This document shows positions 1-33,104 of a stretch of DNA of 33,313 nucleotides, piece after piece. Position numbers and translations under genes: made by a program. Source of the stretch: Puniceicoccales bacterium. Lineage in GTDB: Bacteria; Verrucomicrobiota; Verrucomicrobiia; Opitutales; JAIRKQ01. The stretch is from contig JAISBO010000056.1 in NCBI GenBank assembly GCA_031266155.1, positions 1 through 33,313 of the forward strand. The letters run 5' to 3'. The notes under the pieces were generated by a model. It ran no database searches. It saw only the letters and a program-made list of their open reading frames with translations, and was not told where the DNA came from. Each line of letters begins with the position of its first letter. Position 1 is the stretch's first letter.

Positions 1-227
1 CTTTGGCCAAAAAGGGTATACGGCTAATTGCCAAACACCGCCAAAACATGGTTCCAAACTCCCGGGAAGAAAAAAGATTCCTAAAAAAACGGTCGGCCGT
101 GGAAACTATGATTGGAAAGTTTAAAAATTTCTTCGGTGAAACACTTTCCCGTTTCCGCTCCCCACAATCCACCTATTCTGCCATTTGTGCGGCTATTATT
201 GCTTTAAATTTGGGCCCTTTATTTTGA
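1..227 (+). mobile_element. 3' end of an IS982-like (IS4/IS5-superfamily DDE) transposase ORF, truncated by the window edge
   Basis: Frame 3 is open from nt 1. The tail GIRLIAKHRQNM...LKKRSAVETMIGKFKNFF...SRFRSP...ICAAIIALNL fits, from memory, the conserved IS982-type C-terminus (GIxLI..RxNM ... KRxxIET ... LKN ... RHRS ... LxAY). The E of VET would be the DDE glutamate. No inverted repeats or left end are visible, so the element boundary is undefined. Confidence 0.6.
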
Positions 228-2014: not shown

Positions 2015-2017
2015 AGA

Positions 2018-2041
2018 GTGCGACGCATTTCTGCATCGCAC
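2018..2041 (+). terminator. Hairpin 4 nt after the tadA stop (10-bp stem with one C/A mismatch, loop TTTC), no U-tract
   Basis: GTGCGACGCA-TTTC-TGCATCGCAC read directly. The downstream sequence AATACCATAC is not T-rich, so it is at best a non-canonical terminator or stability element. Confidence 0.35.
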
Positions 2042-2363
2042 AATACCATACATAATTAGATGAAGGAAAAATAAGCTCGAACAAATATTGTTCTCATCTG
2101 AGCTTATAATGAGCAATCATGCAAAATTTGCACATTTGTAAAGTAAAAAATAAAAAAATGTAAAAATATTATTATTTCCTGCGCCATCCATAAAATATCT
2201 CCATCCTTTGACATTTTAGATATAGTATCAGTTTGGTCTGTGGCTACGAACGAATTATAGCCCCATTGCTCGAAACTGACACCTTCGCAGAAGACGGTGA
2301 ATGGCAGGCAGTGTAGGAAGATTCCAGTGCTGGCCTTCTCTTTCTATCTTTAGCGTTCCATTG

Positions 2364-3980
2364 CTAAAGTTTACCATTACCTCCCTCTTCTTCTCTTGCC
2401 TGCGCTTTGTTTTTCATACGGAGAAAATTAAGATGCCATTGGGCATAAAAATTACGTGCATTACAATGGGTCTTTACTTGTTCCGATTGTTCCCATTCGT
2501 TGGGTTCTATTACTAGCTGATTATTTTTCAGTTCTTTTATTTTACTTTTTAAGGCCTGTGCTCTTGCCATAGCCGATTCGATTTGCAATCTCGTCAACCC
2601 ACATTCTCGATACATTTCTTCTAATTCGTTTAAATCAAGATTGTCTATTACGGTATATATTTCGCTATCCGCAACGGGCAGCATACAGTAGTTGCTCGTC
2701 CTTAGGCCATCGACAGCGATTCCTACGGGATAACCATCTTCGGCCACAATAACTTCTGGAATGATGCTGGCAAAACTTCGTGGAGGGTGTGTTGGAAAGG
2801 ATAGGTCATGGTCAAATGCAACTATTCGACCATCCTTCAGTAGCATTATATTGTTTGGATGTCTATCGAATTGCCCCGTTAATATATCCTGGGTTTGTAT
2901 CCAGGCTTCCAGGCGCATAAAGTCATTGTTGTATGGAATTTCTTTTTCCTCTAAAGTTTGCCAAAGGGTGAGACCATCCAGCATTTCCATGGCAATGCTA
3001 GGAACACCATTTATTTCAGCTGCAGAAACAGAGGCTATCACATGTGGAACGTTTATCCCATTTTTTTTACCAATATTGAAAAGCATATCCTGCAGCTTTG
3101 AAGTCGCTTTGTTTCGCCTATAGGATCCGCACATAGGTCCGAGGAGCATTTGCATCGATTGGGTAGCGCATGCAAATGTAGAAAAGTTTTGCCTCTGTTT
3201 GAATAGGTCGCATGGTTTTAATGCTATCGGTTCTTCTTTATTTCCTTTAGCATATGCAAGATGAACAACGTTATATCGCCCCTGGCCCACCGCCTTGGGC
3301 GGACCATTTCTTTCCAGTCCCACATAGCCTTTTTCTTTGGCCTCAAGTAACATCTCAATGGCTTCAACCTGGAGGGCAATTCCAAGGCAATTGCAGTCAC
3401 AGTCATTTTCATTTATTGACAATGACTTATTTGGAAATCGTAATAGTTCCTCATTGCTTCCGAAGTTGACCAATGCGGTTTTCAGTATCGACATTTCGTC
3501 CAATGATAAGTCATTTTTTTTCACAAAAGTTTCTAGATCATCCAAGACTCTTCTAATTTCAGGCACAAGGGTTGGTAGATTGAGTATGGCTATTCCGTTG
3601 GAAACATATTTATCCAAGACCGTAGTAAACTCCGTAATTTTATCAGCTTTAGCGCGAGCATTTGTTTGATCAGTTTCATCAATTTGATCAACCATCATTG
3701 CAAGATTGTCACTAAGGCTGCTTTCCCCATATACGAACTTTGCTACCTGTTGACATATCCGCGATCCTAGGGGGGTATAGGCGTATTCAGCTGTGATTTC
3801 GATTTTTTTTCCTGCACATGCAGCTACTATGTTACAAATTCTTCCATTTACACCTATGGTTGTTGTTCTTGATTCTTGGGCATTTTTGGCTTCATTTTGT
3901 AAATTTTCAACTATTTGTTCCAGCGACCTCATTCCTTGGGGCTTAGCCGACGTACTTGTTTGTTGTGCTATGGCGTCCAT
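2364..3980 (-). CDS. Orphan 538-aa protein with a PI3/PI4-kinase-like (atypical kinase) C-terminal core; function unknown
   Basis: Long uninterrupted ORF with an ATG start. Motifs are VGQGRYNVV...PIALKP, AMEMLDG, DILTGQFDRHPNNIML (DRHxxN, nt 2850-2867) and AFDHDLSFP. The N-terminal ~220 aa match nothing I recognise. No clear Shine-Dalgarno sequence. Confidence 0.6.
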   Translation of the reverse strand: MDAIAQQTSTSAKPQGMRSLEQIVENLQNEAKNAQESRTTTIGVNGRICNIVAACAGKKIEITAEYAYTPLGSRICQQVAKFVYGESSLSDNLAMMVDQIDETDQTNARAKADKITEFTTVLDKYVSNGIAILNLPTLVPEIRRVLDDLETFVKKNDLSLDEMSILKTALVNFGSNEELLRFPNKSLSINENDCDCNCLGIALQVEAIEMLLEAKEKGYVGLERNGPPKAVGQGRYNVVHLAYAKGNKEEPIALKPCDLFKQRQNFSTFACATQSMQMLLGPMCGSYRRNKATSKLQDMLFNIGKKNGINVPHVIASVSAAEINGVPSIAMEMLDGLTLWQTLEEKEIPYNNDFMRLEAWIQTQDILTGQFDRHPNNIMLLKDGRIVAFDHDLSFPTHPPRSFASIIPEVIVAEDGYPVGIAVDGLRTSNYCMLPVADSEIYTVIDNLDLNELEEMYRECGLTRLQIESAMARAQALKSKIKELKNNQLVIEPNEWEQSEQVKTHCNARNFYAQWHLNFLRMKNKAQAREEEGGNGKL

Positions 3981-4269
3981 TCTGAAACTTTACTCTGCTT
4001 CCTTTTAAAGTATAACTTTCCCAAGAAAATTGCACACACAAAATTTACACCATTTTTGCATTTAGAAAGGACAAACATTTCCATCTATTTACTGCAGCGG
4101 CCCCTAACGCGACCTATGAAGGCATTGCGGGCTTCAAACATCGAGAAAATTAAACAACTATCACGCAGCACTTGGTGGTAATTTTCTGGCCTTATGCACA
4201 TCTACATGCTCCGTTAAAATTATCTTGCCGGGTTTTGGAGAAAGAATACTGGTTAGACAAAAGAAAAAA

Positions 4270-5643
4270 ATGGCAAATTTGTTGCAAATTCAAAATTTCA
4301 GCCTGTCTTTCCCTCACAAAGTCTGTTTTGACAATTTTTCAGCACATATTTCGCAGGGTGATCGCATTGCCATTATCGGCCGTAACGGCAGCGGAAAGTC
4401 CTCACTTCTGAAAGCAATTGCGCAAATGGATACAAGCATTGTGACTGCATATATCCCACAAATAATTACAGATTTTGAGACTTGCAGTGGTGGTGAAAAA
4501 TTTAATAGGGCCCTCTCCATCGCCCTTGGGAGCAACCCAGATTTGATGTTGCTCGATGAGCCGACGAATCATCTGGATACCCACAATCGATCCGGGCTTC
4601 TAAGGAAATTAATGTCCTATGGCGGGACATTGATAGTGGTGACACACGATAGAGAAATTTTAAGAAATTGTGTGGATGTTTTATGGCACATAGATAATGG
4701 TAAGGTTACGATCTTTCGCGGAAAGTATGACGATTACATGAAAGAATTGCAAACCAAGCACCAGTCTCTAATGCGTCAGGTAGATCTTCTTAGGGACCAA
4801 GAAAAGGATGCCCATAGAAGCTTAATGAAGGAACAGGAAAGGGCCGCCAAAAGCAAAGCTGCCGGACAAAAGAAGGTATCCAATCGGAAATGGATGAAAT
4901 CGGTCGGAGATCTGAAGGCCATGAAGGCTGAGGTTTCTCAGGGAAGCAAGCTAAAAGCAATTACTAGGAAAAAACAAGATTTGCTTGGTCAATTGGAGCA
5001 AATCCATCTGCCCAAGGTAATCGTTCCTAGGTTCAATTTATCGGCTCAAAAGGCTGCACAAGGGGCAATCGTGTCGATTTGTGGAGGAGCCATTGGCTAT
5101 GGTGATACGTCCATTTGGAGTAATATTGATTTATCCGTTCATTCCTCGGAACGTGTTGCGCTTGTTGGCCGAAATGGTAGTGGAAAAACTACACTAATTA
5201 GAGCGATATTGAACGATCCGAAGGTAATAAAAACTGGAGATTGGCATATCCCGCCCTTAAAGGATATCGGTGTGTTGGATCAACACTATAAAACCCTTCC
5301 TCTCCATAGGTCAGCACTGGAAATAATATCCGAGGTTGCCCCGGAATGGAGCCACGCTGAAATCCGCCGTCACCTGAACGATTTTCTTTTTCGAAAAAAT
5401 GAGGAGACATCGGAAGCCGTTGAAAATCTATCGGGAGGGGAAAGGGCACGCCTTTCCCTAGCTCAGATTGCAGCTCACCCGCCTAAACTTCTCATTTTAG
5501 ACGAAATTACTAACAATTTAGACTTGGAAACCTGCGACCATGTCATTCAAATACTGCGTGAATATCCGGGTTCCATGATAGTTGTTTCCCACGATGAAAC
5601 TTTCCTGGAAGAAATAAAAATTGATAAATACTACGGCAGGTAA
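4270..5643 (+). CDS. ABC-F family ATPase (two ABC domains, no transmembrane domain) with a minimised first domain
   Basis: NBD1 has GRNGSGKS (Walker A), CSGGEK (signature), LMLLDEPTNHLD (Walker B) and VVTHD (H-loop). A charged ~90-aa linker follows. NBD2 has GRNGSGKT, LSGGERARL, LLILDEITNNLD and VVSHD. The track ORF starts at a TTG (4225), and the ATG at 4270 (MANLLQIQNFS) matches typical ABC-F N-termini. Confidence 0.85.
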   Translation: MANLLQIQNFSLSFPHKVCFDNFSAHISQGDRIAIIGRNGSGKSSLLKAIAQMDTSIVTAYIPQIITDFETCSGGEKFNRALSIALGSNPDLMLLDEPTNHLDTHNRSGLLRKLMSYGGTLIVVTHDREILRNCVDVLWHIDNGKVTIFRGKYDDYMKELQTKHQSLMRQVDLLRDQEKDAHRSLMKEQERAAKSKAAGQKKVSNRKWMKSVGDLKAMKAEVSQGSKLKAITRKKQDLLGQLEQIHLPKVIVPRFNLSAQKAAQGAIVSICGGAIGYGDTSIWSNIDLSVHSSERVALVGRNGSGKTTLIRAILNDPKVIKTGDWHIPPLKDIGVLDQHYKTLPLHRSALEIISEVAPEWSHAEIRRHLNDFLFRKNEETSEAVENLSGGERARLSLAQIAAHPPKLLILDEITNNLDLETCDHVIQILREYPGSMIVVSHDETFLEEIKIDKYYGR

Positions 5644-17482: not shown

Positions 17483-18298
17483 ATGATAATAGTCATAGAC
17501 ACCCTAGATGATATCGAACAAAAGCTAAAGGGAGCTGATGGTAACACTTTGGTGGTGTTTGATTGTGATGAAGTGTTAACGACACTTTCTGAACAGGTTT
17601 GGCAGGCTCGAAACCATGATTTCCTCGTTAAATGGTGCACCGAGAATATTTCTAATTTTTCAGAAGATGTGCTGTATGAACTTGTAACGTCCATTTTAGT
17701 ATCCAGCAAGAATCTTTTAGTAAATCAGCGAATGCCAGAGCTTGTCGAGAATTTGCGCGGAAGAAATATAAAATCCGTCGTCTTGACTGCACTTTCCACA
17801 CAACCCATTGCTTCCATAATGGATCCGATGGCATGGAGAATATCAACATTGGAAAGTTTCGGATATAATTTTAAAATGTTTTGGCCTTCATTGCTCGACA
17901 GATATTTTAAAGAATTTGGCGGAGAATACCCGCCAGCCTATGGCTCAGGAGTAATTTGTTGTGGGAGTATCCCCAAATCACGGTGTTTGATGGCATTTCT
18001 TGCCTATGCCAACATTGCACCGGACAGAGTAATTTTCATAGATGATAAAATAGAAAACCTAGAAGATGTTAAAGAGCAATGCGACCTTGCGAAGATTAAA
18101 TTTCTTGGAATTAGGTATACGGAGTCCCACAAATTGACCCCGACTATCCCTTTTTGTGCAAATAAAATTAGGTGTCAATTGACAACTTTAAAAGAGAAAA
18201 GTATTTGGATTCCCGATAGTGACATTGAAAAAATTTTAGCATCGAGTCCTAAGTTTGAATACCAGCAACAACCCCAAAAGAAGAAATACCAACGCTAA
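17483..18298 (+). CDS. HAD-superfamily phosphatase-like protein (DUF2608-like), function unknown
   Basis: All four HAD motifs can be read: I VVFDCDEVLT (DxDxV/T), II VVLTALS, III a Lys in GSIPKSR, IV IFIDDKIENLED. My recollection of the DUF2608 family is the only basis for that label. Confidence 0.55.
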   Translation: MIIVIDTLDDIEQKLKGADGNTLVVFDCDEVLTTLSEQVWQARNHDFLVKWCTENISNFSEDVLYELVTSILVSSKNLLVNQRMPELVENLRGRNIKSVVLTALSTQPIASIMDPMAWRISTLESFGYNFKMFWPSLLDRYFKEFGGEYPPAYGSGVICCGSIPKSRCLMAFLAYANIAPDRVIFIDDKIENLEDVKEQCDLAKIKFLGIRYTESHKLTPTIPFCANKIRCQLTTLKEKSIWIPDSDIEKILASSPKFEYQQQPQKKKYQR

Positions 18299-23001: not shown

Positions 23002-24429
23002 TTATTCAATGTATTGATTGGCCATTATTGCTGGTTTATTGGCCAGTTGCTTCCACCTTGCTAGAAAATCATACTTGTTATCTGCAAACATCGGGCTTAT
23101 TTCGATGTCAAAGGGAGGCAATCCATTGGCGTCCGTTGGAATATCCGTTCCTGCGGCCAACAACCAGGCAGTAAAAAGCTTCAATTGATCCTGTAAACAA
23201 GTTTTCAACGAATCCAATCCGTCCATATTTTTTATGGGACTAAAATTGGACAATCTATCGCTTTCCAGGACAATTGCCCTTTCGGCGAAGGGTAAAATAT
23301 CAAATATAAACATTTCTAATTTTAACCCATTGGCTACCTGGGGAATAATAGGCTCACCAAGTGGATTTATGGTCGGGATAATCTTTTGGGCAATGTGGTA
23401 TGGAATTTCAGAGTGAATATCCTTACCATTAAATTGTTTTATAAATTGGACGTCTAGTAGGTGTATGCCCGTGTTGCCTGCACAAAATACAAGATTACCC
23501 GCGGTATCCCGCAGCATGGCTTGTTCTTTTGGCAAATCGGAGTATTCAACAACACGGCTTTTACCATTCCTTTCACAGAAAATTCCAACTTTTTCTTCCG
23601 GATATAATTTACGAACCATCCGGGAAGATACCTGGGATTGGTTTTTTACGTGGGATCCGATGAAATATGGATCGATGCTCCTGGCAAGGGGGTTGTCGAT
23701 CTGAAAATAGCTTATGATTTCGACGCCCAAGTTTTCTAACATCGCCAGCAAACCCGATCGGCCAAGAGCTTTTAAGGCTCCCCCATGCCCGTCTGGGTGC
23801 ATGGCGATTTTGCTCCTCGTTTCCATGATGAATTTTCCATCGTTAGTAATCGCTGGCATATGCCCTTGCTTTACAAAATGAATATTCCCAACCCCAAAGG
23901 AATCATTTTTTCCGAAGAATTCCATGGTCTCATTGTGAGCTCGTTCGCTCGTCATTATTATCCAAGGAATTGGAGTTTCATATTTTCGCTCGGCGGCTTT
24001 TATCTTTTCGGCAAATATTTGAAAGAGCGATTTCTTTTTCAGCGGCGTTGCTTGTATTACACCTTTAGGAACCGTACAAGCTAGGCGTGTTCCTTCTCCT
24101 CCTGCCACCGTAAACGCTGCGACTTTACCAGCCCTTATGGTTTGTTCTCCGATGGCTATGGTCTCTTTACACTTTTGCCAATCGACTTCGGAATTTGGGA
24201 ATTTTATAAACTTGGCAGGAGTTATAGTTGGGGCATGTTTATCGGGTTGAAAGTTTTTATGGAGGACATTGTCTATAATTTGAGATAGATAATCTAAATT
24301 TAGATTTTTGGCCTGTTGCAGCAGCAGCAACTGCTCTTCGGCGGAAAGAATCTCCCAAAACTTGAAAACATGTTCCTGCCCATATTTACAAAACTGTAAT
24401 TTTAACTCTTTGGCTTGTTTATCGGTCAT
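23002..24429 (-). CDS. UDPGP-family (eukaryote-type UAP/AGX-like) UDP-N-acetylhexosamine pyrophosphorylase
   Basis: GQEHVFKFWEILSAEEQ and FTVAGGEGTRLACTVPKG correspond to the GQxHLLxFW and LAGGQGTRLG..PKG motifs of UAP1-type enzymes. 475 aa. It does not have the GlmU architecture. Confidence 0.8.
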   Translation of the reverse strand: MTDKQAKELKLQFCKYGQEHVFKFWEILSAEEQLLLLQQAKNLNLDYLSQIIDNVLHKNFQPDKHAPTITPAKFIKFPNSEVDWQKCKETIAIGEQTIRAGKVAAFTVAGGEGTRLACTVPKGVIQATPLKKKSLFQIFAEKIKAAERKYETPIPWIIMTSERAHNETMEFFGKNDSFGVGNIHFVKQGHMPAITNDGKFIMETRSKIAMHPDGHGGALKALGRSGLLAMLENLGVEIISYFQIDNPLARSIDPYFIGSHVKNQSQVSSRMVRKLYPEEKVGIFCERNGKSRVVEYSDLPKEQAMLRDTAGNLVFCAGNTGIHLLDVQFIKQFNGKDIHSEIPYHIAQKIIPTINPLGEPIIPQVANGLKLEMFIFDILPFAERAIVLESDRLSNFSPIKNMDGLDSLKTCLQDQLKLFTAWLLAAGTDIPTDANGLPPFDIEISPMFADNKYDFLARWKQLANKPAIMANQYIE

Positions 24430-27195: not shown

Positions 27196-27690
27196 ATGAT
27201 ATCTTTCCTGCTTGCCATTGTCTACTATGGTGTATTGTTTTTGTGCCAACTTTTCAATGGTACCGCACTGATTCTCGGTGTCCTAATTGTTCCCATTGGA
27301 TTATTTGTTCATGGCCCCGCCACATACCTAGATTCTATTCGGGCTACGATTCTATACTGTTTGATTGGCCCTATCCTCGATGTAACATTCCCTTTTTTAC
27401 CATTTGGGTTTAGTGCGGTCTTTTGCATATTTTTTTACTGCATGCAAAGGGCTATATTCACTCCGGGATATCCCATATTATCCTCCCATCGAATCGGCTT
27501 TGAGCAGGTGGCTAACATTTCATATATCCTATCCCTATTCATTTTTCGAAATACACCATTCGGCATATTTCAATTTCTGCTAACGGCGGGTATTTCGCAA
27601 ATCTGTGTATTTTTGCTATCTGACGGAATGGCTCTTTGCCATAGAAAACTCATGTTTATCTACGATAATTACATAAAATACCAACGATAA
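27196..27690 (+). CDS. Polytopic membrane protein, putative MreD (assigned by position)
   Basis: 164 aa with about 5 hydrophobic segments. It starts 2 nt after the mreC stop with a GGAGA Shine-Dalgarno sequence. Size and position fit MreD, but I see no diagnostic motif. Confidence 0.4.
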   Translation: MISFLLAIVYYGVLFLCQLFNGTALILGVLIVPIGLFVHGPATYLDSIRATILYCLIGPILDVTFPFLPFGFSAVFCIFFYCMQRAIFTPGYPILSSHRIGFEQVANISYILSLFIFRNTPFGIFQFLLTAGISQICVFLLSDGMALCHRKLMFIYDNYIKYQR

Positions 27691-27691
27691 T

Positions 27692-28501
27692 CTACGGAAA
27701 TGGTTCCGAATTTGGAACAATTCTGGCAAAACTACTTTTCGCATGGGAAATCAAGAAATCCTTTGCTTTGGCCATATCCTTTGCTACCAATGCATGCAAT
27801 TTGACGGCATCGGTTTTGTCCAAAGCCCTAAGCGTAACATCAAAGAACGACAAGTTTCCTTTAGCAATGATACTTTTGCCATTTTTATCGTAGGATATCG
27901 TATTCCAAGAATATATCATTTTTGTGTTCGGAGCCAAGGCAACTATACTCTTTTTAGGCATTTGTATTGCCACACGAAACTTAAAGTCCGCCAATGGTAT
28001 GCTAAACTTACGTGTGTGTTTACTTTTCGTATCCACGTCTTCAAAAAATTTTTCCATGGAATGATTTTGCATTAGCAGCTTTTGTAGGGATAGGGAGGTC
28101 GCACTGTCTAGTATGGTGCGGGAAATTTCAAGTTTTCCAAATTCTAACTCCACAACATTATATTTCACTGCTGCGGTAACGTGTTGTTCGTTATTCGTAG
28201 TGAAAAAAAATAGCCTAAGTCCATTTTCACCTTCGTTCTTGCAAATTTCAAAGATAGGCTGTTTTTTATCAAGAAGAACCATCGACTTCAAATCATCGTC
28301 GATACACATCAATATGTCGTTTAATTTTTTACAAATAATTCTTGTTTCGTCGACAGATCGGCTACTATCAGTCGCCAGGGATATTAATTTTTTCCCGAGG
28401 AAAACTAATATAGTAAGTACAAACAATGACAACATCAGTTCCAATAAAGTAAATGCCCTACTAGCAGTATAACATTTAATCCGACTTGATATAAGTCCCA
28501 T
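27692..28501 (-). CDS. Prepilin-type N-terminal domain protein (pseudopilin-like), function unknown
   Basis: The N-terminus MGLISSRIKCYTASRA/FTLLELMLSLFVLTILVF resembles the class III signal peptide (G/FTLxE plus a hydrophobic helix), but with Ala rather than Gly at position -1. The remaining ~230 aa match nothing I recognise. Confidence 0.55.
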   Translation of the reverse strand: MGLISSRIKCYTASRAFTLLELMLSLFVLTILVFLGKKLISLATDSSRSVDETRIICKKLNDILMCIDDDLKSMVLLDKKQPIFEICKNEGENGLRLFFFTTNNEQHVTAAVKYNVVELEFGKLEISRTILDSATSLSLQKLLMQNHSMEKFFEDVDTKSKHTRKFSIPLADFKFRVAIQMPKKSIVALAPNTKMIYSWNTISYDKNGKSIIAKGNLSFFDVTLRALDKTDAVKLHALVAKDMAKAKDFLISHAKSSFARIVPNSEPFP

Positions 28502-28619: not shown

Positions 28620-30431
28620 ATGATAGACATTGAAAATTTAACCTATCGAATTGGCAGTCGGATATTGTTTGAAGATGCAACACTGCATTTGCCATCGGAT
28701 GGAAAAATTGGGATAGTTGGCCCAAATGGGTGTGGGAAAACGACACTATTTAGGATAATCCTTGGTCAGGAAGACATTGACGCTGGAGAAATTTTCATAA
28801 AAAACAAAACAAGGCTCGTTTGTGTAAAACAAGAAATTGAAGATGATGAAATTTCTTTGCTGGATTTTATCATTGGCGCCGACAAAGAATTAGTGCGGCT
28901 GCGAACAATTTTGGAAGACAAACAAATGTCCGATGGGAACCTTGCCAATGCCTACGATGCCTATGCCGCAATCGATGGCTACTCAGCGGAAGCACGGGCA
29001 TCTAGCATATTGGACGGTCTCGGATTTAAGCAGGATGATCTCGGTAAAAAATTGAAAAAGTTTTCGGGAGGATGGCAAGTAAGGGCGTCCCTTGCAGCGG
29101 CGCTATTTGCTCCATCCGACTGCCTGTTGCTTGATGAACCCTCCAACCATTTGGACTTGGAAACGGCCATGTGGCTAGAAAATTTTTTGGAAAAAACCAA
29201 CAAAATGGTAGTCATGATTTCCCATGAGAAGCAGTTTTTGAATTCCATTTGCAATTGCATCGTCAGCATTTTCAACAGGCAACTACACCTCTTTAGGGGA
29301 AATTACGATACCTACATGGATACACGTAGGAAGCAGGAGCTTGCATTGGTAAGAAATATCGAGGCTCAACAGAAAAAGCGAGAACACGTACAGAGCTTTA
29401 TCGATAGGTTCAGGGCAAAAGCGACAAAGGCCAAGCAGGCACAGAGCAGAATTAAAATGTTGGAAAAAATGGAAGTTCCAGAAATGCCCGGCTCAGAATA
29501 CAAAGTAACCCTATCATTTCCCAAACCACACCCTCAGGTTGATCGTAAGTTGATAATTTTAGAAAATGTCGCCGCAGGGTATGCTAATAAAACGGTGCTA
29601 AGGGACGTGAAATTTTGTGTAAATTCGGATGACAGGATCGCCCTACTAGGGGCAAATGGCAACGGAAAATCTACGCTTGCTAAATTGTTGGCCAATCGAT
29701 TGGTCCCTCTTTCGGGGAATATCTCCTATGCAAGAAATTTAAAAGTGTCATATTTTTCCCAGCAGCAGGCCGATGAACTGAATGTGGAATCTTCTCCCGT
29801 CGAAACCCTACGCAGGCTCGCCCGTGACTTTTCAGAGACGCAGGCGCGTTCTCACCTAGCAAGATTTGGAATAACGCAATCCCGCAGCGAGACGCTTATA
29901 AAAAACCTATCCGGCGGTGAAAAATCCCGTGTTTTGCTCGCGATAAATTCACTTTTCAATCCCCATGCTATGATTCTAGATGAGCCAACGAACCATTTGG
30001 ACATTGAAACTCGGGAAGCATTGGTCGATGCGATAAACAAATACCAGGGAGCAGTGATCCTAATTACCCACGACTTTTTTACTTTGTCCAAAACGTGCAA
30101 TAGACTTTTTGTCATCGATGGAGGGAAGTGCACTCCTTTCAATGGTTCTCTGGATTCCTACCGAGAAATGTTGCTCTCCAAGGGGACCAATCAAAATTCT
30201 TCCGTCGATAATTCGAGTAAGGCTGAAAATCCAAAGAGACCTAGTAATGATTCGAAGTTAAAGAAAAAGCTGTTTCTCTTGGAAAAAGACATCAAAATTC
30301 TGGAAACTGAAAAAAAGGCCCTCGAAGAAAAATTATCGAAAATTCAAGACGTGGAAGTCTACGGGCTGTATGCAAAATGCTGTGATGAACTGGCGAAACT
30401 GGAAAACCAATGGCTGGAATTGAGTTCCTAA
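28620..30431 (+). CDS. ABC-F family ATPase (YheS/Uup-like, with a C-terminal coiled coil)
   Basis: GPNGCGKTT / FSGGWQVR / LLLDEPSNHLD, then a Lys/Arg-rich linker (FRAKATKAKQAQSRIK), then GANGNGKST / LSGGEKSR / MILDEPTNHLD, and a heptad-like C-terminal tail. Confidence 0.9.
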   Translation: MIDIENLTYRIGSRILFEDATLHLPSDGKIGIVGPNGCGKTTLFRIILGQEDIDAGEIFIKNKTRLVCVKQEIEDDEISLLDFIIGADKELVRLRTILEDKQMSDGNLANAYDAYAAIDGYSAEARASSILDGLGFKQDDLGKKLKKFSGGWQVRASLAAALFAPSDCLLLDEPSNHLDLETAMWLENFLEKTNKMVVMISHEKQFLNSICNCIVSIFNRQLHLFRGNYDTYMDTRRKQELALVRNIEAQQKKREHVQSFIDRFRAKATKAKQAQSRIKMLEKMEVPEMPGSEYKVTLSFPKPHPQVDRKLIILENVAAGYANKTVLRDVKFCVNSDDRIALLGANGNGKSTLAKLLANRLVPLSGNISYARNLKVSYFSQQQADELNVESSPVETLRRLARDFSETQARSHLARFGITQSRSETLIKNLSGGEKSRVLLAINSLFNPHAMILDEPTNHLDIETREALVDAINKYQGAVILITHDFFTLSKTCNRLFVIDGGKCTPFNGSLDSYREMLLSKGTNQNSSVDNSSKAENPKRPSNDSKLKKKLFLLEKDIKILETEKKALEEKLSKIQDVEVYGLYAKCCDELAKLENQWLELSS

Positions 30432-31201
30432 AACGAACACTCTACGGATGCACGCATCCAAATGAAATCTTTATGGGCGCCATTCACCCAAGTGTGTACC
30501 TCTGCTGAATTTCCTTTCCAGGCCACTCCAATCTTTGCCTTTGCCCTGTCGTGGATGGTGTATGCCAAATCTACTCCCGCACCATAGAAGAAGAAATTCC
30601 GTTTTTCGCCCTCGATACATTTACCATTGCACTTTTTTGCTGTCTCGTAGCCGACCTCACCGCTAATTTCTACGCCCAGGCCTCGCATAAGGCTCTCTCT
30701 AAGGTCAATTTCATGTACAACTTTTACTTGCAGGGAAAAGTCTTCATTGTTGAAGTCATAGAACGTGTAGAGGGATGGAGATAGGAAAACATCTGCCCCA
30801 ATACCGCAATAGATTTCATTGGAATGTTTTTGCCCATCGCCGGAGGCGGATGTATAGAAGTAGTGAGTGTAGCCGGCGTCAATGGCGAATAGGTCCTTCA
30901 CGATGTATAAAATTCCCAGACACGGCTCTATCCTGCTATAGTTTTCCTTCAGTGCGGCGATGGTGTCCACGGAAACAGAAAGCCTCACATTTTCCAAAAT
31001 TTTGTAACCCAGCCCCAGGTGCGGCAAAACAGCCTTACCACAAGATTTGCAGCCGTGGGAAACATGTTCTGTCGCGAATTTGACGCCCATTTCACATGCC
31101 AACTTTTCACTCCAATTTACCGGTTCCGTTTGCTCATCGTCGGCTACGCTGGAAACGGAAGCTAACATCAATAAAATTACGACCGCTAGCAATTTTTTCA
31201 T
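30428..31201 (-). CDS. Secreted Cys-rich protein, probable outer-membrane beta-barrel
   Basis: Signal peptide MKKLLAVVILLMLASVSSVA/DD, alternating hydrophobic beta-strand-like segments, aromatic-rich strand ends (YTHYFY, FFFYGAG) and a terminal Phe (..VECSF). AGGTGA Shine-Dalgarno sequence. 8 Cys in the mature part. Confidence 0.5.
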   Translation of the reverse strand: MKKLLAVVILLMLASVSSVADDEQTEPVNWSEKLACEMGVKFATEHVSHGCKSCGKAVLPHLGLGYKILENVRLSVSVDTIAALKENYSRIEPCLGILYIVKDLFAIDAGYTHYFYTSASGDGQKHSNEIYCGIGADVFLSPSLYTFYDFNNEDFSLQVKVVHEIDLRESLMRGLGVEISGEVGYETAKKCNGKCIEGEKRNFFFYGAGVDLAYTIHDRAKAKIGVAWKGNSAEVHTWVNGAHKDFIWMRASVECSF

Positions 31202-32600: not shown

Positions 32601-33104
32601 ATGGAAGTTAATTATACTGATAATCCAATAATGGATACTCTCTATGGAGGACAGGGGCAATTTGGAGTACCGGGCGGAACAGCAGCGCTGCCGGGAGGAG
32701 TAGTTTGGACACCTGAAGCCATAGCACAAATGCAAAACATAGGGCGCCTTGCCAATAGAGATGAAATACTCGGAAGACCATTGGATGGAAGAGAAGTTAC
32801 CCTCATTGTAACCGGCCATGCACAGGGGGGAGGCCAGGTCGTTGTTGATCAAGTAGAGCCACGAAACCATTTAAATCCTCAACAAGTAGCAGCTGTGCGG
32901 GGATCCCAGAAGGGAAAAATATTTTTGAGCATTGCTGGAGCAGTAATAGGGGTAATATTGCGAGCCCAGAACAACGGATATAATGAGCTTGCCTATGGTT
33001 CCTGGGCCGCTGCTGCTGCCATGCTTTGGCCAACCATAGAAAGCTTTTTAGTGGATAGGTGCAAGGAACCTGATCCCGTCTTGAGAGATCAATACCAGGC
33101 ATAG
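32601..33104 (+). CDS. Hypothetical 167-aa protein with a Gly-rich N-terminus and a two-lobed hydrophobic C-terminal region
   Basis: A strong GGAGG Shine-Dalgarno sequence sits 5 nt before the ATG, and the ORF is followed by a clean hairpin. No family recognised. Two antisense ORFs overlap it (32583-32870, 32803-33135) but lack comparable signals. Confidence 0.5.
   Translation: MEVNYTDNPIMDTLYGGQGQFGVPGGTAALPGGVVWTPEAIAQMQNIGRLANRDEILGRPLDGREVTLIVTGHAQGGGQVVVDQVEPRNHLNPQQVAAVRGSQKGKIFLSIAGAVIGVILRAQNNGYNELAYGSWAAAAAMLWPTIESFLVDRCKEPDPVLRDQYQA

Follow-up and report, generated by a model that had tools for sequence, protein, structure and literature searches.

A multicopy family of PI3/PI4-kinase-like proteins in termite-gut Puniceicoccales, with a possible role as effectors acting on the host

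The locus studied here raises the question of what a 538-amino-acid (aa) protein without a recognizable housekeeping identity does in a Puniceicoccales bacterium. The window, that is, the whole stretch of DNA analyzed, is a contig of 33,313 nucleotides (nt) (GenBank assembly GCA_031266155.1, contig JAISBO010000056.1), and the gene in question occupies positions 2364 to 3980 of its minus strand, with an ATG start and a stop codon at positions 2364 to 2366 in the list of open reading frames (ORFs). This start is backed by orthologues that also open with MDGIAQQT. A preliminary description, made from the letters of the sequence, had read a catalytic core like that of phosphatidylinositol 3-kinases (PI3Ks) and 4-kinases (PI4Ks) in the C-terminal half of the protein and had proposed a secreted lipid kinase. 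The ORF and all of the motif coordinates given there turned out to be exact. Taken together, the data presented below indicate that the protein is very probably an active kinase of the PI3/PI4-kinase superfamily, and they point, with less assurance, to an exported one.

Profile searches placed the protein in this superfamily. Pfam family PF00454 (PI3_PI4_kinase) matched aa 365 to 400 (E = 2.5e-5, 24.8 bits) over about 36 residues, corresponding to profile positions 141 to 177, and was the sole credible Pfam match, the families ABC1 and APH staying below threshold (E values of 0.013 to 0.04); NCBIfam returned nothing meaningful for the kinase protein. PF00454 was thus, as anticipated, the top Pfam family and virtually the sole one. 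The relatives gave the same picture: 22 of 39 homologues matched PF00454 at an E value below 0.01 (best, 5.6e-7), and no other kinase family recurred among them. P0106 (28.1 bits) and L030 (28.2 bits) passed the gathering score of the profile, and P0020 and P0021 carried precomputed PF00454 matches. Among six distant relatives from other phyla, five were also matched, and the distant members of the family, both in Puniceicoccales and elsewhere (Burkholderiaceae, Acetobacteraceae, Alphaproteobacteria, and Butyrivibrio), matched PF00454 and nothing else. No family member matched Pfam Pkinase, and PK_Tyr_Ser-Thr matched 1 of 39 (E = 0.0046).

The AlphaFold2 model computed from the family alignment had a mean predicted local distance difference test score (pLDDT) of 91.2 and a predicted template-modeling score of 0.86 and adopted a protein-kinase-like bilobal fold, with a C-lobe above pLDDT 90 except for a stretch of lower confidence around aa 410 to 420. 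Searching the PDB with the full model in Foldseek returned 413 chains at E values of 1e-3 or less, and the best 50 were all protein or lipid kinases, although the template-modeling scores of the kinase-fold matches were low (0.2 to 0.45). In sequence searches of the PDB, neither the protein alone nor the close-family profile gave a significant kinase match. The kinase-like fold sought from modeling was therefore found, while the subclass to which the predicted structure belongs, eukaryotic protein kinase (ePK) or PI4K, was left unseparated by Foldseek.

Conservation of the catalytic residues was counted after aligning 183 retrieved proteins to the family hidden Markov model (HMM), with up to 148 of them covering a given column. 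The predicted DRHxxN loop was confirmed as DRHPNN at aa 372 to 377 (nt 2850 to 2867), and the five residues named in the preliminary description (D372, H374, N377, D390, and D392) were kept in 87 to 100% of the aligned relatives. In detail, the loop residues were conserved in 142 (D372), 138 (R373), 125 (H374; 87%), and all (N377) of 144 proteins, and the downstream metal-binding segment in 147/148 (D390), 142/148 (D392), and 138/147 (F395), while the Gly-rich loop and the ATP-binding lysine were kept in 64/66 (G234) and 65/67 (K255). Arginine at +1 and histidine at +2 after the catalytic aspartate are a signature of PI3Ks, PI4Ks, and PI3K-related protein kinases (PIKKs), not of ePKs, whereas a gap of 18 residues between the catalytic and the metal-binding aspartate, as from D372 to D390, is seen in PI3Ks and ePKs alike. 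Given the PF00454 match and the conservation of these residues in about 145 relatives, the motifs are more than a chance resemblance. The PF00454 matches, the kinase fold, and the conserved catalytic residues together make the enzyme class well supported and bear out the PI3/PI4-kinase-like core first read by eye.

A kinase fold does not always perform phosphotransfer. Effectors with a kinase fold and non-kinase chemistry are known (SidJ, SelO), and the protein might thus be a pseudokinase scaffold or an enzyme of AMPylation (as SelO) or glutamylation (as SidJ). Some variation within the family is in line with such a repurposing: P0025 and P0032 have N for D372, H374 is replaced in 19 of 144 proteins, and the predicted alphaC helix conserves Q297 and N290 but no evident acidic residue. 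However, the canonical set for phosphotransfer (lysine, catalytic aspartate, asparagine, and metal-binding aspartate) is intact in more than 95% of the relatives as well as in the window protein, and the degenerate copies form a small minority, as expected of a birth-and-death family. We therefore regard a repurposed fold as very improbable. P0025 and P0032, in which alignment A1 shows asparagine in place of Asp372 together with an altered His374 (MNRRGDN and MNRNGHN), may be pseudokinase copies within the family.

The family shares with the PF00454 superfamily, which comprises PI3Ks, type II and type III PI4Ks, and PIKKs, the loop G-x-x-D-R-H-x-x-N followed by a metal-binding aspartate at +18, an ATP-binding lysine in the beta-strand after the Gly-rich loop, and the bilobal fold. 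It differs from it by a metal-binding motif that reads DHD or DND rather than DFG (D-[HN]-D-x-[SC]-F across the family), by a more ePK-like N-lobe, and by the absence of the PI3K helical, C2, and FAT/FATC accessory domains. The resemblance between AFDHDLSFP and the IDNGLAFP segment of type II PI4Ks, proposed earlier, was reproduced by hhalign, but with an E value of only about 0.04 to 0.055. This comparison used a human PI4K2A sequence, which was identical to PDB entry 4HND apart from engineered Cys-to-Ser changes; aligned to the family profile, PI4K2A scored 0.055 as a single sequence and 0.039 with a vertebrate PI4K2 alignment (effective number of sequences, Neff, 1.3), a shallow template since its homology search returned almost only vertebrate orthologues. 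The alignment with type II PI4Ks (PI4K2A/PI4K2B; 4HND, 4PLA) was collinear over the kinase core and paired, family residues first, GQGRYN with GSSGSY, ALKP with VFKP, QDILTGQFDRHPNN with LDYIIRNTDRGNDN, and AFDHDLSFPTHPP with AIDNGLAFPLKHP, as well as the C-terminal helix GLTRxEI..AMARA with GFDRGQF..AVMRGQ. The segment AFDHDLSFP itself was paired with AAIDNGLAFP of PI4K2A by hhalign and with ID-FGDCF of mTOR by hmmsearch. Type II PI4Ks differ in having glycine where the family has the histidine of DRH and in their domain architecture, and their CCPCC palmitoylation insert was not found between K255 and alphaC in either the window protein or the family consensus. Judged on its residues, the D-H-D-x-S-F-P segment most resembles that of type II PI4Ks.

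Only A3, a broad profile that includes distant relatives, reached mTOR and PI3K in the PDB. In the catalytic and activation segments, it matched mTOR, SMG1, TOR2, Tel1, and PI3K-alpha (E values of about 2e-3 to 0.3, with about 2e-3 for mTOR, SMG1, and PI3K-alpha), and in the N-lobe it matched MARK2, StkP, and CDK7 (E values of 0.005 to 0.05); these regional matches describe a protein with an ePK-like N-lobe and a PI3K-type catalytic and activation region. The likeness to ePKs is confined to the N-lobe; the family loop is x-D-R-H-x-x-N and not HRD-L-K-x-x-N.

These matches bear on whether the substrate would be a lipid or a protein. A translocated protein kinase that phosphorylates serine or threonine residues of host proteins, with N-terminal modules selecting the targets, which in a nucleus-dwelling symbiont could be nuclear, would account for the A3 matches, since the catalytic and activation segments fit the PIKKs mTOR, SMG1, TOR2, and Tel1 best and the N-lobe fits MARK2, StkP, and CDK7, as well as for the ePKs at the top of the Foldseek results and for a Gly-loop (GxGxxN-V plus ALKP) that resembles the GxGxxG...VAIK of ePKs. 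Many effector kinases do target proteins (LegK1-4, LegK7, OspG/NleH, and HopBF1), the population features from which an effector role is argued below apply equally here, and P0006 (L002 8001-9794) ends in a duplicated basic tail, ...KKFNKSRGDRV...PQLKKRKRKQKLEKA, that resembles a classical nuclear localization signal (KKRKRK). Against this reading, the +2 position of the loop is histidine (125/144) as in PI3Ks and PI4Ks and not the lysine of Ser/Thr kinases, no member matches Pkinase and PK_Tyr_Ser-Thr matches one of 39 at 0.0046, the segment after the metal-binding aspartate fits the activation loops of PI4K2A and PI3K better than the APE of ePKs, and export meets the same caveat as for a lipid kinase. 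A protein-directed effector is thus rather unlikely. The basic tail of P0006 is intriguing in its own right, as the clade includes intranuclear symbionts.

We then considered where the family occurs. A word-indexed search returned 38 homologues with 37 to 71% identity, all of them annotated as hypothetical and all from Puniceicoccales metagenome-assembled genomes (MAGs) or JGI metagenomes, and a profile search of 1.84 billion representatives returned 719 proteins at E values of 1e-3 or less, 57 of which scored 1e-30 or less. Matches at middle distance for which a source name was available were mostly Puniceicoccales MAG proteins, some of them fused to an HD domain; one exception among those looked up came from cultured Pseudochelatococcus lubricantis. 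In the GTDB species representatives, 24 of 29 loci were in ten Puniceicoccales MAGs, which derive from hindguts of Kalotermitidae (Cryptotermes, Glyptotermes, Kalotermes, Neotermes, and Procryptotermes) according to sample codes and the supplement of PMC11481507, and whose accessions lie inside the deposit range of Mies et al. 2024 (PMC11257099). That study described a large Opitutales clade found only in lower termites (families LL51 and UBA9783), with genomes below 1.5 Mbp, a reduced GC content, and a nucleotide transporter of the NTT type, and regarded it as putatively endosymbiotic in gut flagellates (PMC11257099); the endonuclear Ca. Nucleococcus belongs to this clade (PMC11257099; PMC8204192). 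Examination of the phyletic distribution, as suggested in the preliminary description, thus showed close relatives confined to a host-associated lineage. The family is undescribed: neither Pfam nor NCBIfam has a model for it, every member is annotated as hypothetical, and the literature searched held no description of it.

Two side observations concern domain combinations among the more distant proteins. P0112 (2154 aa), P0122 (1545 aa), P0134 (1373 aa), and P0157 (3184 aa), all from Logan/ENA assemblies, contain two to three separated DRHxxN...D-x-D segments and may be multi-kinase proteins. P0087 (789 aa, MDR1457000.1) and P0074 (1370 aa, MDR1438138.1) carry source annotations as HD-domain or HD-superfamily phosphohydrolases, and in P0087 a weak Pfam HD match (E = 0.0014, below the cutoff) precedes the C-lobe and tail of the kinase; such a layout would pair a phosphohydrolase with a kinase.

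Within these genomes the family has expanded and evolves fast. On one side of the locus, the species share their gene order (ABC-F, ferritin, nitroreductase, holB, tmk, ketohexokinase, lptF/G, and leuS), while the other side varies. Tandem paralogues stand at the same locus in several genomes (three in L002/L008 and two each in L004 and L006), and further copies lie elsewhere, some of them frameshifted (L016, L019, and L021) or reduced to fragments (L001 and L006), giving roughly two to six copies per MAG. Between the window and orthologous loci, the kinase has 52 to 71% aa identity, compared to 82 to 96% for all eight syntenic neighbors. Between the window and L001, the ratio of nonsynonymous to synonymous substitution rates (dN/dS) was 0.38 for the kinase against 0.04 to 0.16 for seven neighbors, at similar dS (0.43 to 0.64), and the raised ratio was spread across all four regions of the protein. 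A dN/dS of 0.38 indicates a functional gene that purifying selection maintains. Sequence comparison thus describes a kinase that is constrained at its catalytic residues and evolves several-fold faster than the genes next to it.

The N-terminal part varies in architecture among the paralogues. Modeled separately (pLDDT 86), aa 1 to 226 formed a helix with a four-strand meander followed by a helical bundle, and Foldseek found no match for this fold in the PDB (best E = 0.096). HMMs of the two sub-modules detected one to three copies of the beta module and one to four copies of the helical module in the paralogues: P0039 reads as three beta modules, three helical modules, and a kinase, and P0029 as four helical modules and a kinase, while a 988-aa ORF in L017 consists of two beta and four helical modules with no kinase domain. 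Repeated N-terminal modules were seen in L017 1691-4654 (+) and 4767-7265 (+), P0029, P0039, and P0026.

Expansion and fast evolution would also fit a function inside the bacterium, as a HipA-like toxin that arrests growth, in abortive infection or defense, or as a regulatory or small-molecule kinase, with the copy dynamics arising from conflict with phages or mobile elements. HipA proteins, of about 450 to 550 aa, join an N-terminal domain specific to their family to a C-terminal kinase with a loop, GNxDxHxKN, similar to the one in PI3/4-kinases, and they show that such a loop can serve a bacterial protein-kinase toxin. The window protein is like HipA in size, in having its own N-terminal domain, and in its C-terminal kinase with a PI3/4K-like loop, but its family has R at +1 and lacks the HipA lysine at +4. 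Several further points are consistent with an intrabacterial role: distant relatives come from free-living members of several phyla, one of them a cultured isolate; no secretion system was found in the DNA examined; fast evolution and tandem duplication are typical of defense genes too; one distant relative weakly matches the PADLOC defense kinase PD-T4-6 (E = 2e-4); and some distant paralogues have a small ORF directly upstream (L035 9716-9997). However, the kinase protein had no Pfam match to HipA_C or Couple_hipA, with APH and ABC1 remaining sub-threshold, and neither PADLOC nor PHROG matched the window protein or its Puniceicoccales paralogues, which leaves the defense and phage readings without direct support. 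Nor was there a HipB-like antitoxin, a small upstream ORF, or any other partner gene beside the kinase gene, which has its own conserved upstream spacer of 289 nt to the ABC-F gene instead. Moreover, about two to six copies are retained in eroding genomes of less than 1.5 Mbp, which is hard to reconcile with dispensable defense genes, and the expansion is specific to the endosymbiont-like clade. We thus consider a role inside the bacterium unlikely.

Evidence for export was sought in the protein and in the related loci. No hydrophobic signal peptide could be read from the kinase sequence. The N-termini of the family were slightly richer in S, T, Q, N, and P than the housekeeping proteins of the window (0.32 versus 0.25, P = 0.018). 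A gene for a CesT-family type III chaperone (L033 21259-21783, minus strand) lies 9 kb from a kinase paralogue, and it has homologues in L036 (10001-10513) and L038 (10001-10510), with 60 to 78% identity across termite Puniceicoccales MAGs. Each of the CesT-family genes is followed by a gene for a 197- to 278-aa protein without a Pfam family and by a DJ-1/PfpI gene, a layout like that of chaperone-effector pairs, which would imply a type III secretion system (T3SS) somewhere in termite Puniceicoccales genomes; the literature searched held nothing on a T3SS in the termite Opitutales clade. Secretin genes encoding 656 to 667 aa (L036 17416-19419 and L038 17805-19775, both on the minus strand) stand beside a nitroreductase-ferritin pair, and it is this pair that adjoins the ABC-F/kinase locus in the window. 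The secretin could belong to a type II secretion system, a type IV pilus, or a T3SS. In L002, an autotransporter gene flanks the triple kinase array.

A translocated effector that phosphorylates host phosphoinositides is, to our mind, the most likely role of the kinase, a reading we hold tentatively. It is suggested by the expansion of the family, its tandem copies and pseudogenes, the modular N-termini, the dN/dS, close homologues restricted to Puniceicoccales MAGs of Kalotermitidae hindguts, the CesT-family genes, and a disordered polar N-terminus without a signal peptide. What was observed is the fold, the conserved catalytic motifs, a family that has expanded and evolves fast, and its distribution in a host-associated lineage. 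In the mechanism that we propose, the kinase would reach the host protist by export, perhaps via a type III system, and variable N-terminal modules would direct separate paralogues to separate host sites. There the kinase domain would phosphorylate the inositol ring of host phosphatidylinositol lipids, which could change membrane identity around or near the symbiont. Export, a lipid substrate, and a host target are plausible inferences.

Precedent for such a role comes from Risk1, OpiA/LegA5, LepB, and MavQ. Risk1 was first picked out by its pfam00454 loops, and its identity as a PI3K effector was demonstrated afterwards (PMC7298712); LepB, AnkK/LegA5/OpiA, and MavQ are PI-kinase effectors (PMC9758233). 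Like the window protein, Risk1, OpiA, LegA5/AnkK, LepB, and MavQ combine a divergent kinase fold, recognizable mainly by loops of the PI3/PI4 type, with a lineage-restricted and variably present gene in an intracellular bacterium and without a housekeeping role. Bacterial PI-kinase-like effectors are thus an already known kind of protein. The Verrucomicrobiota family differs in phylum and host (termite-gut flagellates), in being multicopy, and in its repeated N-terminal modules. OpiA/LegA5/AnkK, Risk1, and MavQ have no Pfam families, and loops of the PF00454 type are their one link to the window family.

Several results weigh against a phosphoinositide-directed effector. The PF00454 score of the window protein, 24.8 bits, falls just under the gathering score of 27.1, Foldseek ranks ePKs (GRK2, PknB, and Syk) above PI4KIII-beta (8q6g, rank 45), and the similarity to type II PI4Ks is nonsignificant (E values of 0.04 to 0.055). 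The closest solved matches of the catalytic loop, mTOR and SMG1, are both protein kinases, so that DRHxxN alone leaves the choice between a lipid and a protein substrate unsettled; with Foldseek not separating ePKs from PI4Ks either, the lipid substrate proposed in the preliminary description was not established. Kinship to LepB or MavQ, both cited there as bacterial proteins of this fold, was not detected: LepB_N was absent from the Pfam matches at E values up to 10, and no chain named LepB or MavQ appeared among the PDB sequence matches listed or the top 50 Foldseek matches. Distant relatives also occur in apparently free-living Burkholderiaceae, Acetobacteraceae, Butyrivibrio, and Pseudochelatococcus lubricantis. 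As for export, the compositional signal of the N-termini is weak because the paralogues are not independent, neither the window nor some 440 kb of related loci showed a secretion apparatus, and the CesT-family genes and the secretin amount to hints of a secretion system. Secretion, as originally proposed, was therefore not established either, as there is no signal peptide and no apparatus in the DNA examined, and of the elements of such a system only CesT-family genes.

The features of the gene and of its two spacers are collected in Table 1. The C-terminal helical tail is the part most widely common to distant relatives (profile positions 450 to 536).

Table 1. Features of the kinase gene and its flanking spacers (positions in the window)
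Feature	Residues	Position (nt)	Strand	Basis or remark
Upstream spacer, shared with the divergent ABC-F gene		3981..4269	.	Probable promoter region
Disordered polar leader, MDAIAQQTSTSA	1-12	3945..3980	(-)	pLDDT <50 for aa 1-7 / 1-12 in two models
Beta module, one helix and four-strand meander	14-95	3696..3941	(-)	AlphaFold2 secondary structure
Helical module, FVxQNDLSxDEI...SINE...EAxExLLDAK	130-226	3303..3593	(-)	Conserved columns in A1 and A2
Kinase N-lobe	227-340	2961..3302	(-)	Gly-loop, K255, hinge; N-lobe matches MARK2, StkP, CDK7
Gly-rich loop and ATP-binding Lys K255, VGQGRYNVVHLAYAKGNKEEPIALKP	231-256	3213-3290	(-)	
Hinge, AMEMLDG	330-336	2973-2993	(-)	
Kinase C-lobe, long structured activation segment	341-438	2667..2960	(-)	AlphaFold2 secondary structure
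Catalytic loop, DILTGQFDRHPNNIML	365-380	2841..2888	(-)	PF00454; aligns to DRHxxN loops of mTOR and PI3K-alpha
Metal-binding segment/start of activation loop, AFDHDLSFP	388-396	2793..2819	(-)	D390 = D372 +18
C-terminal helical tail, CGLTRxEIxAAMARA and NFYAxRH	439-538	2367..2666	(-)	Conserved columns; model helices 439-534
Downstream spacer, kinase and tadA convergent		2015..2363	.	Terminator-like hairpin 2018-2041

The kinase gene is convergent with tadA and divergent from the ABC-F gene, and its antiparallel orientation to both neighbors and the spacers of 349 and 289 nt (the latter measured up to the ABC-F ATG at position 4270) are as first described. Contrary to what had been stated, the spacers are not unusually long, since others in the window measure 351, 300, 614, and 506 nt, and their AT enrichment is mild, with 37 to 38% GC compared to 42.4% for the window. 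The gene stands alone between its neighbors, but as a member of a large paralogous family it is no one-off. Recent horizontal acquisition was considered and rejected, as the GC content of the gene (41.1%) matches that of the window.

Over its full 289 nt, the spacer at 3981-4269 has 71 to 73% identity to the same spacer in L001 and L004, suggesting regulatory content; its conservation between species nearly equals that of the kinase coding sequence. A consensus promoter scan found no convincing sigma-70 site in it. On the other side, the hairpin at 2018-2041, which adjoins tadA, has a stem of 10 bp and, on the minus strand, a T-run after it, and beyond this hairpin the scan for promoter and terminator consensus sequences gave nothing above chance. 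A decayed second kinase copy in the 349-nt spacer, a possibility modeled on the fragment downstream of the L001 orthologue, was rejected (blastx E > 1); compared to L004, this spacer has two short DNA matches only (41 to 46 nt), in noncollinear order. Rfam and tRNA scans of the window returned no matches.

No secretion apparatus is encoded in the window, whose genes, apart from the kinase and those named below, have housekeeping functions. The kinase gene had been called the only large gene without a housekeeping identity; it is the largest unassigned gene but not the sole one, given four further ORFs of 164 to 269 aa without a Pfam family at E values of 1e-5 or less, at 27196-27690 (+), 27692-28501 (-), 30428-31201 (-), and 32601-33104 (+). 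A further gene without a housekeeping role, at 17483-18298 (+), encodes a 271-aa DUF2608 protein (Pfam E = 9.5e-29) with no solved relative and lies between spacers of 300 and 194 nt. At 23002-24429 (-), flanked by spacers of 208 and 506 nt, a 475-aa protein with a Pfam UDPGP match is closest in a PDB sequence search to eukaryote-type UDP-GlcNAc pyrophosphorylase (human AGX1/UAP1, 1jv1; E = 1e-73); by this search it is of the eukaryote type rather than the bacterial GlmU type, and it could be host derived or otherwise transferred. At the edge of the window, a 74-aa ORF (3-227, plus strand; MAKKGIRLIAKHRQNMVPNSREEKRFLKKRSAVETMIGKFKNFFG...) resembles, as judged by eye, the C terminus of an insertion sequence transposase and had no Pfam match at E values of 1e-5 or less.

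Prior work on the symbionts of termite-gut flagellates has centered on metabolism and genome reduction, and the literature searched describes no protein by which they act on the host cell. The kinase family offers a concrete and testable candidate for such an interaction, with a recognizable core, intact catalytic residues, and clear signs of an evolution of the host-interaction type. If its members act inside the bacterium, they would represent an unusual case of a multicopy PI3/4K-like kinase kept in eroding genomes. If they are exported phosphatidylinositol kinases, the hijacking of phosphoinositides would extend from a few pathogens among the proteobacteria (Legionella, Francisella, and Rickettsia) to mutualist-like symbionts of anaerobic protists from the Planctomycetes-Verrucomicrobia-Chlamydiae group, and the repeated N-terminal modules would be a new targeting domain worth solving. 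In its boldest form, which is speculative and which we think improbable as a whole, each genome of these verrucomicrobial endosymbionts, nucleus-dwelling lineages included, would encode a diversifying arsenal of about two to six type-II-PI4K-like lipid kinases, exported by a CesT-chaperoned T3SS, and swappable, repeat-expandable modules with a fold not seen before would address every paralogue to its own host membrane or nuclear site. Such an arsenal, if real, would give termite-protist symbionts their first defined effector family, and it would mean that phosphoinositide hijacking was invented independently outside Pseudomonadota.

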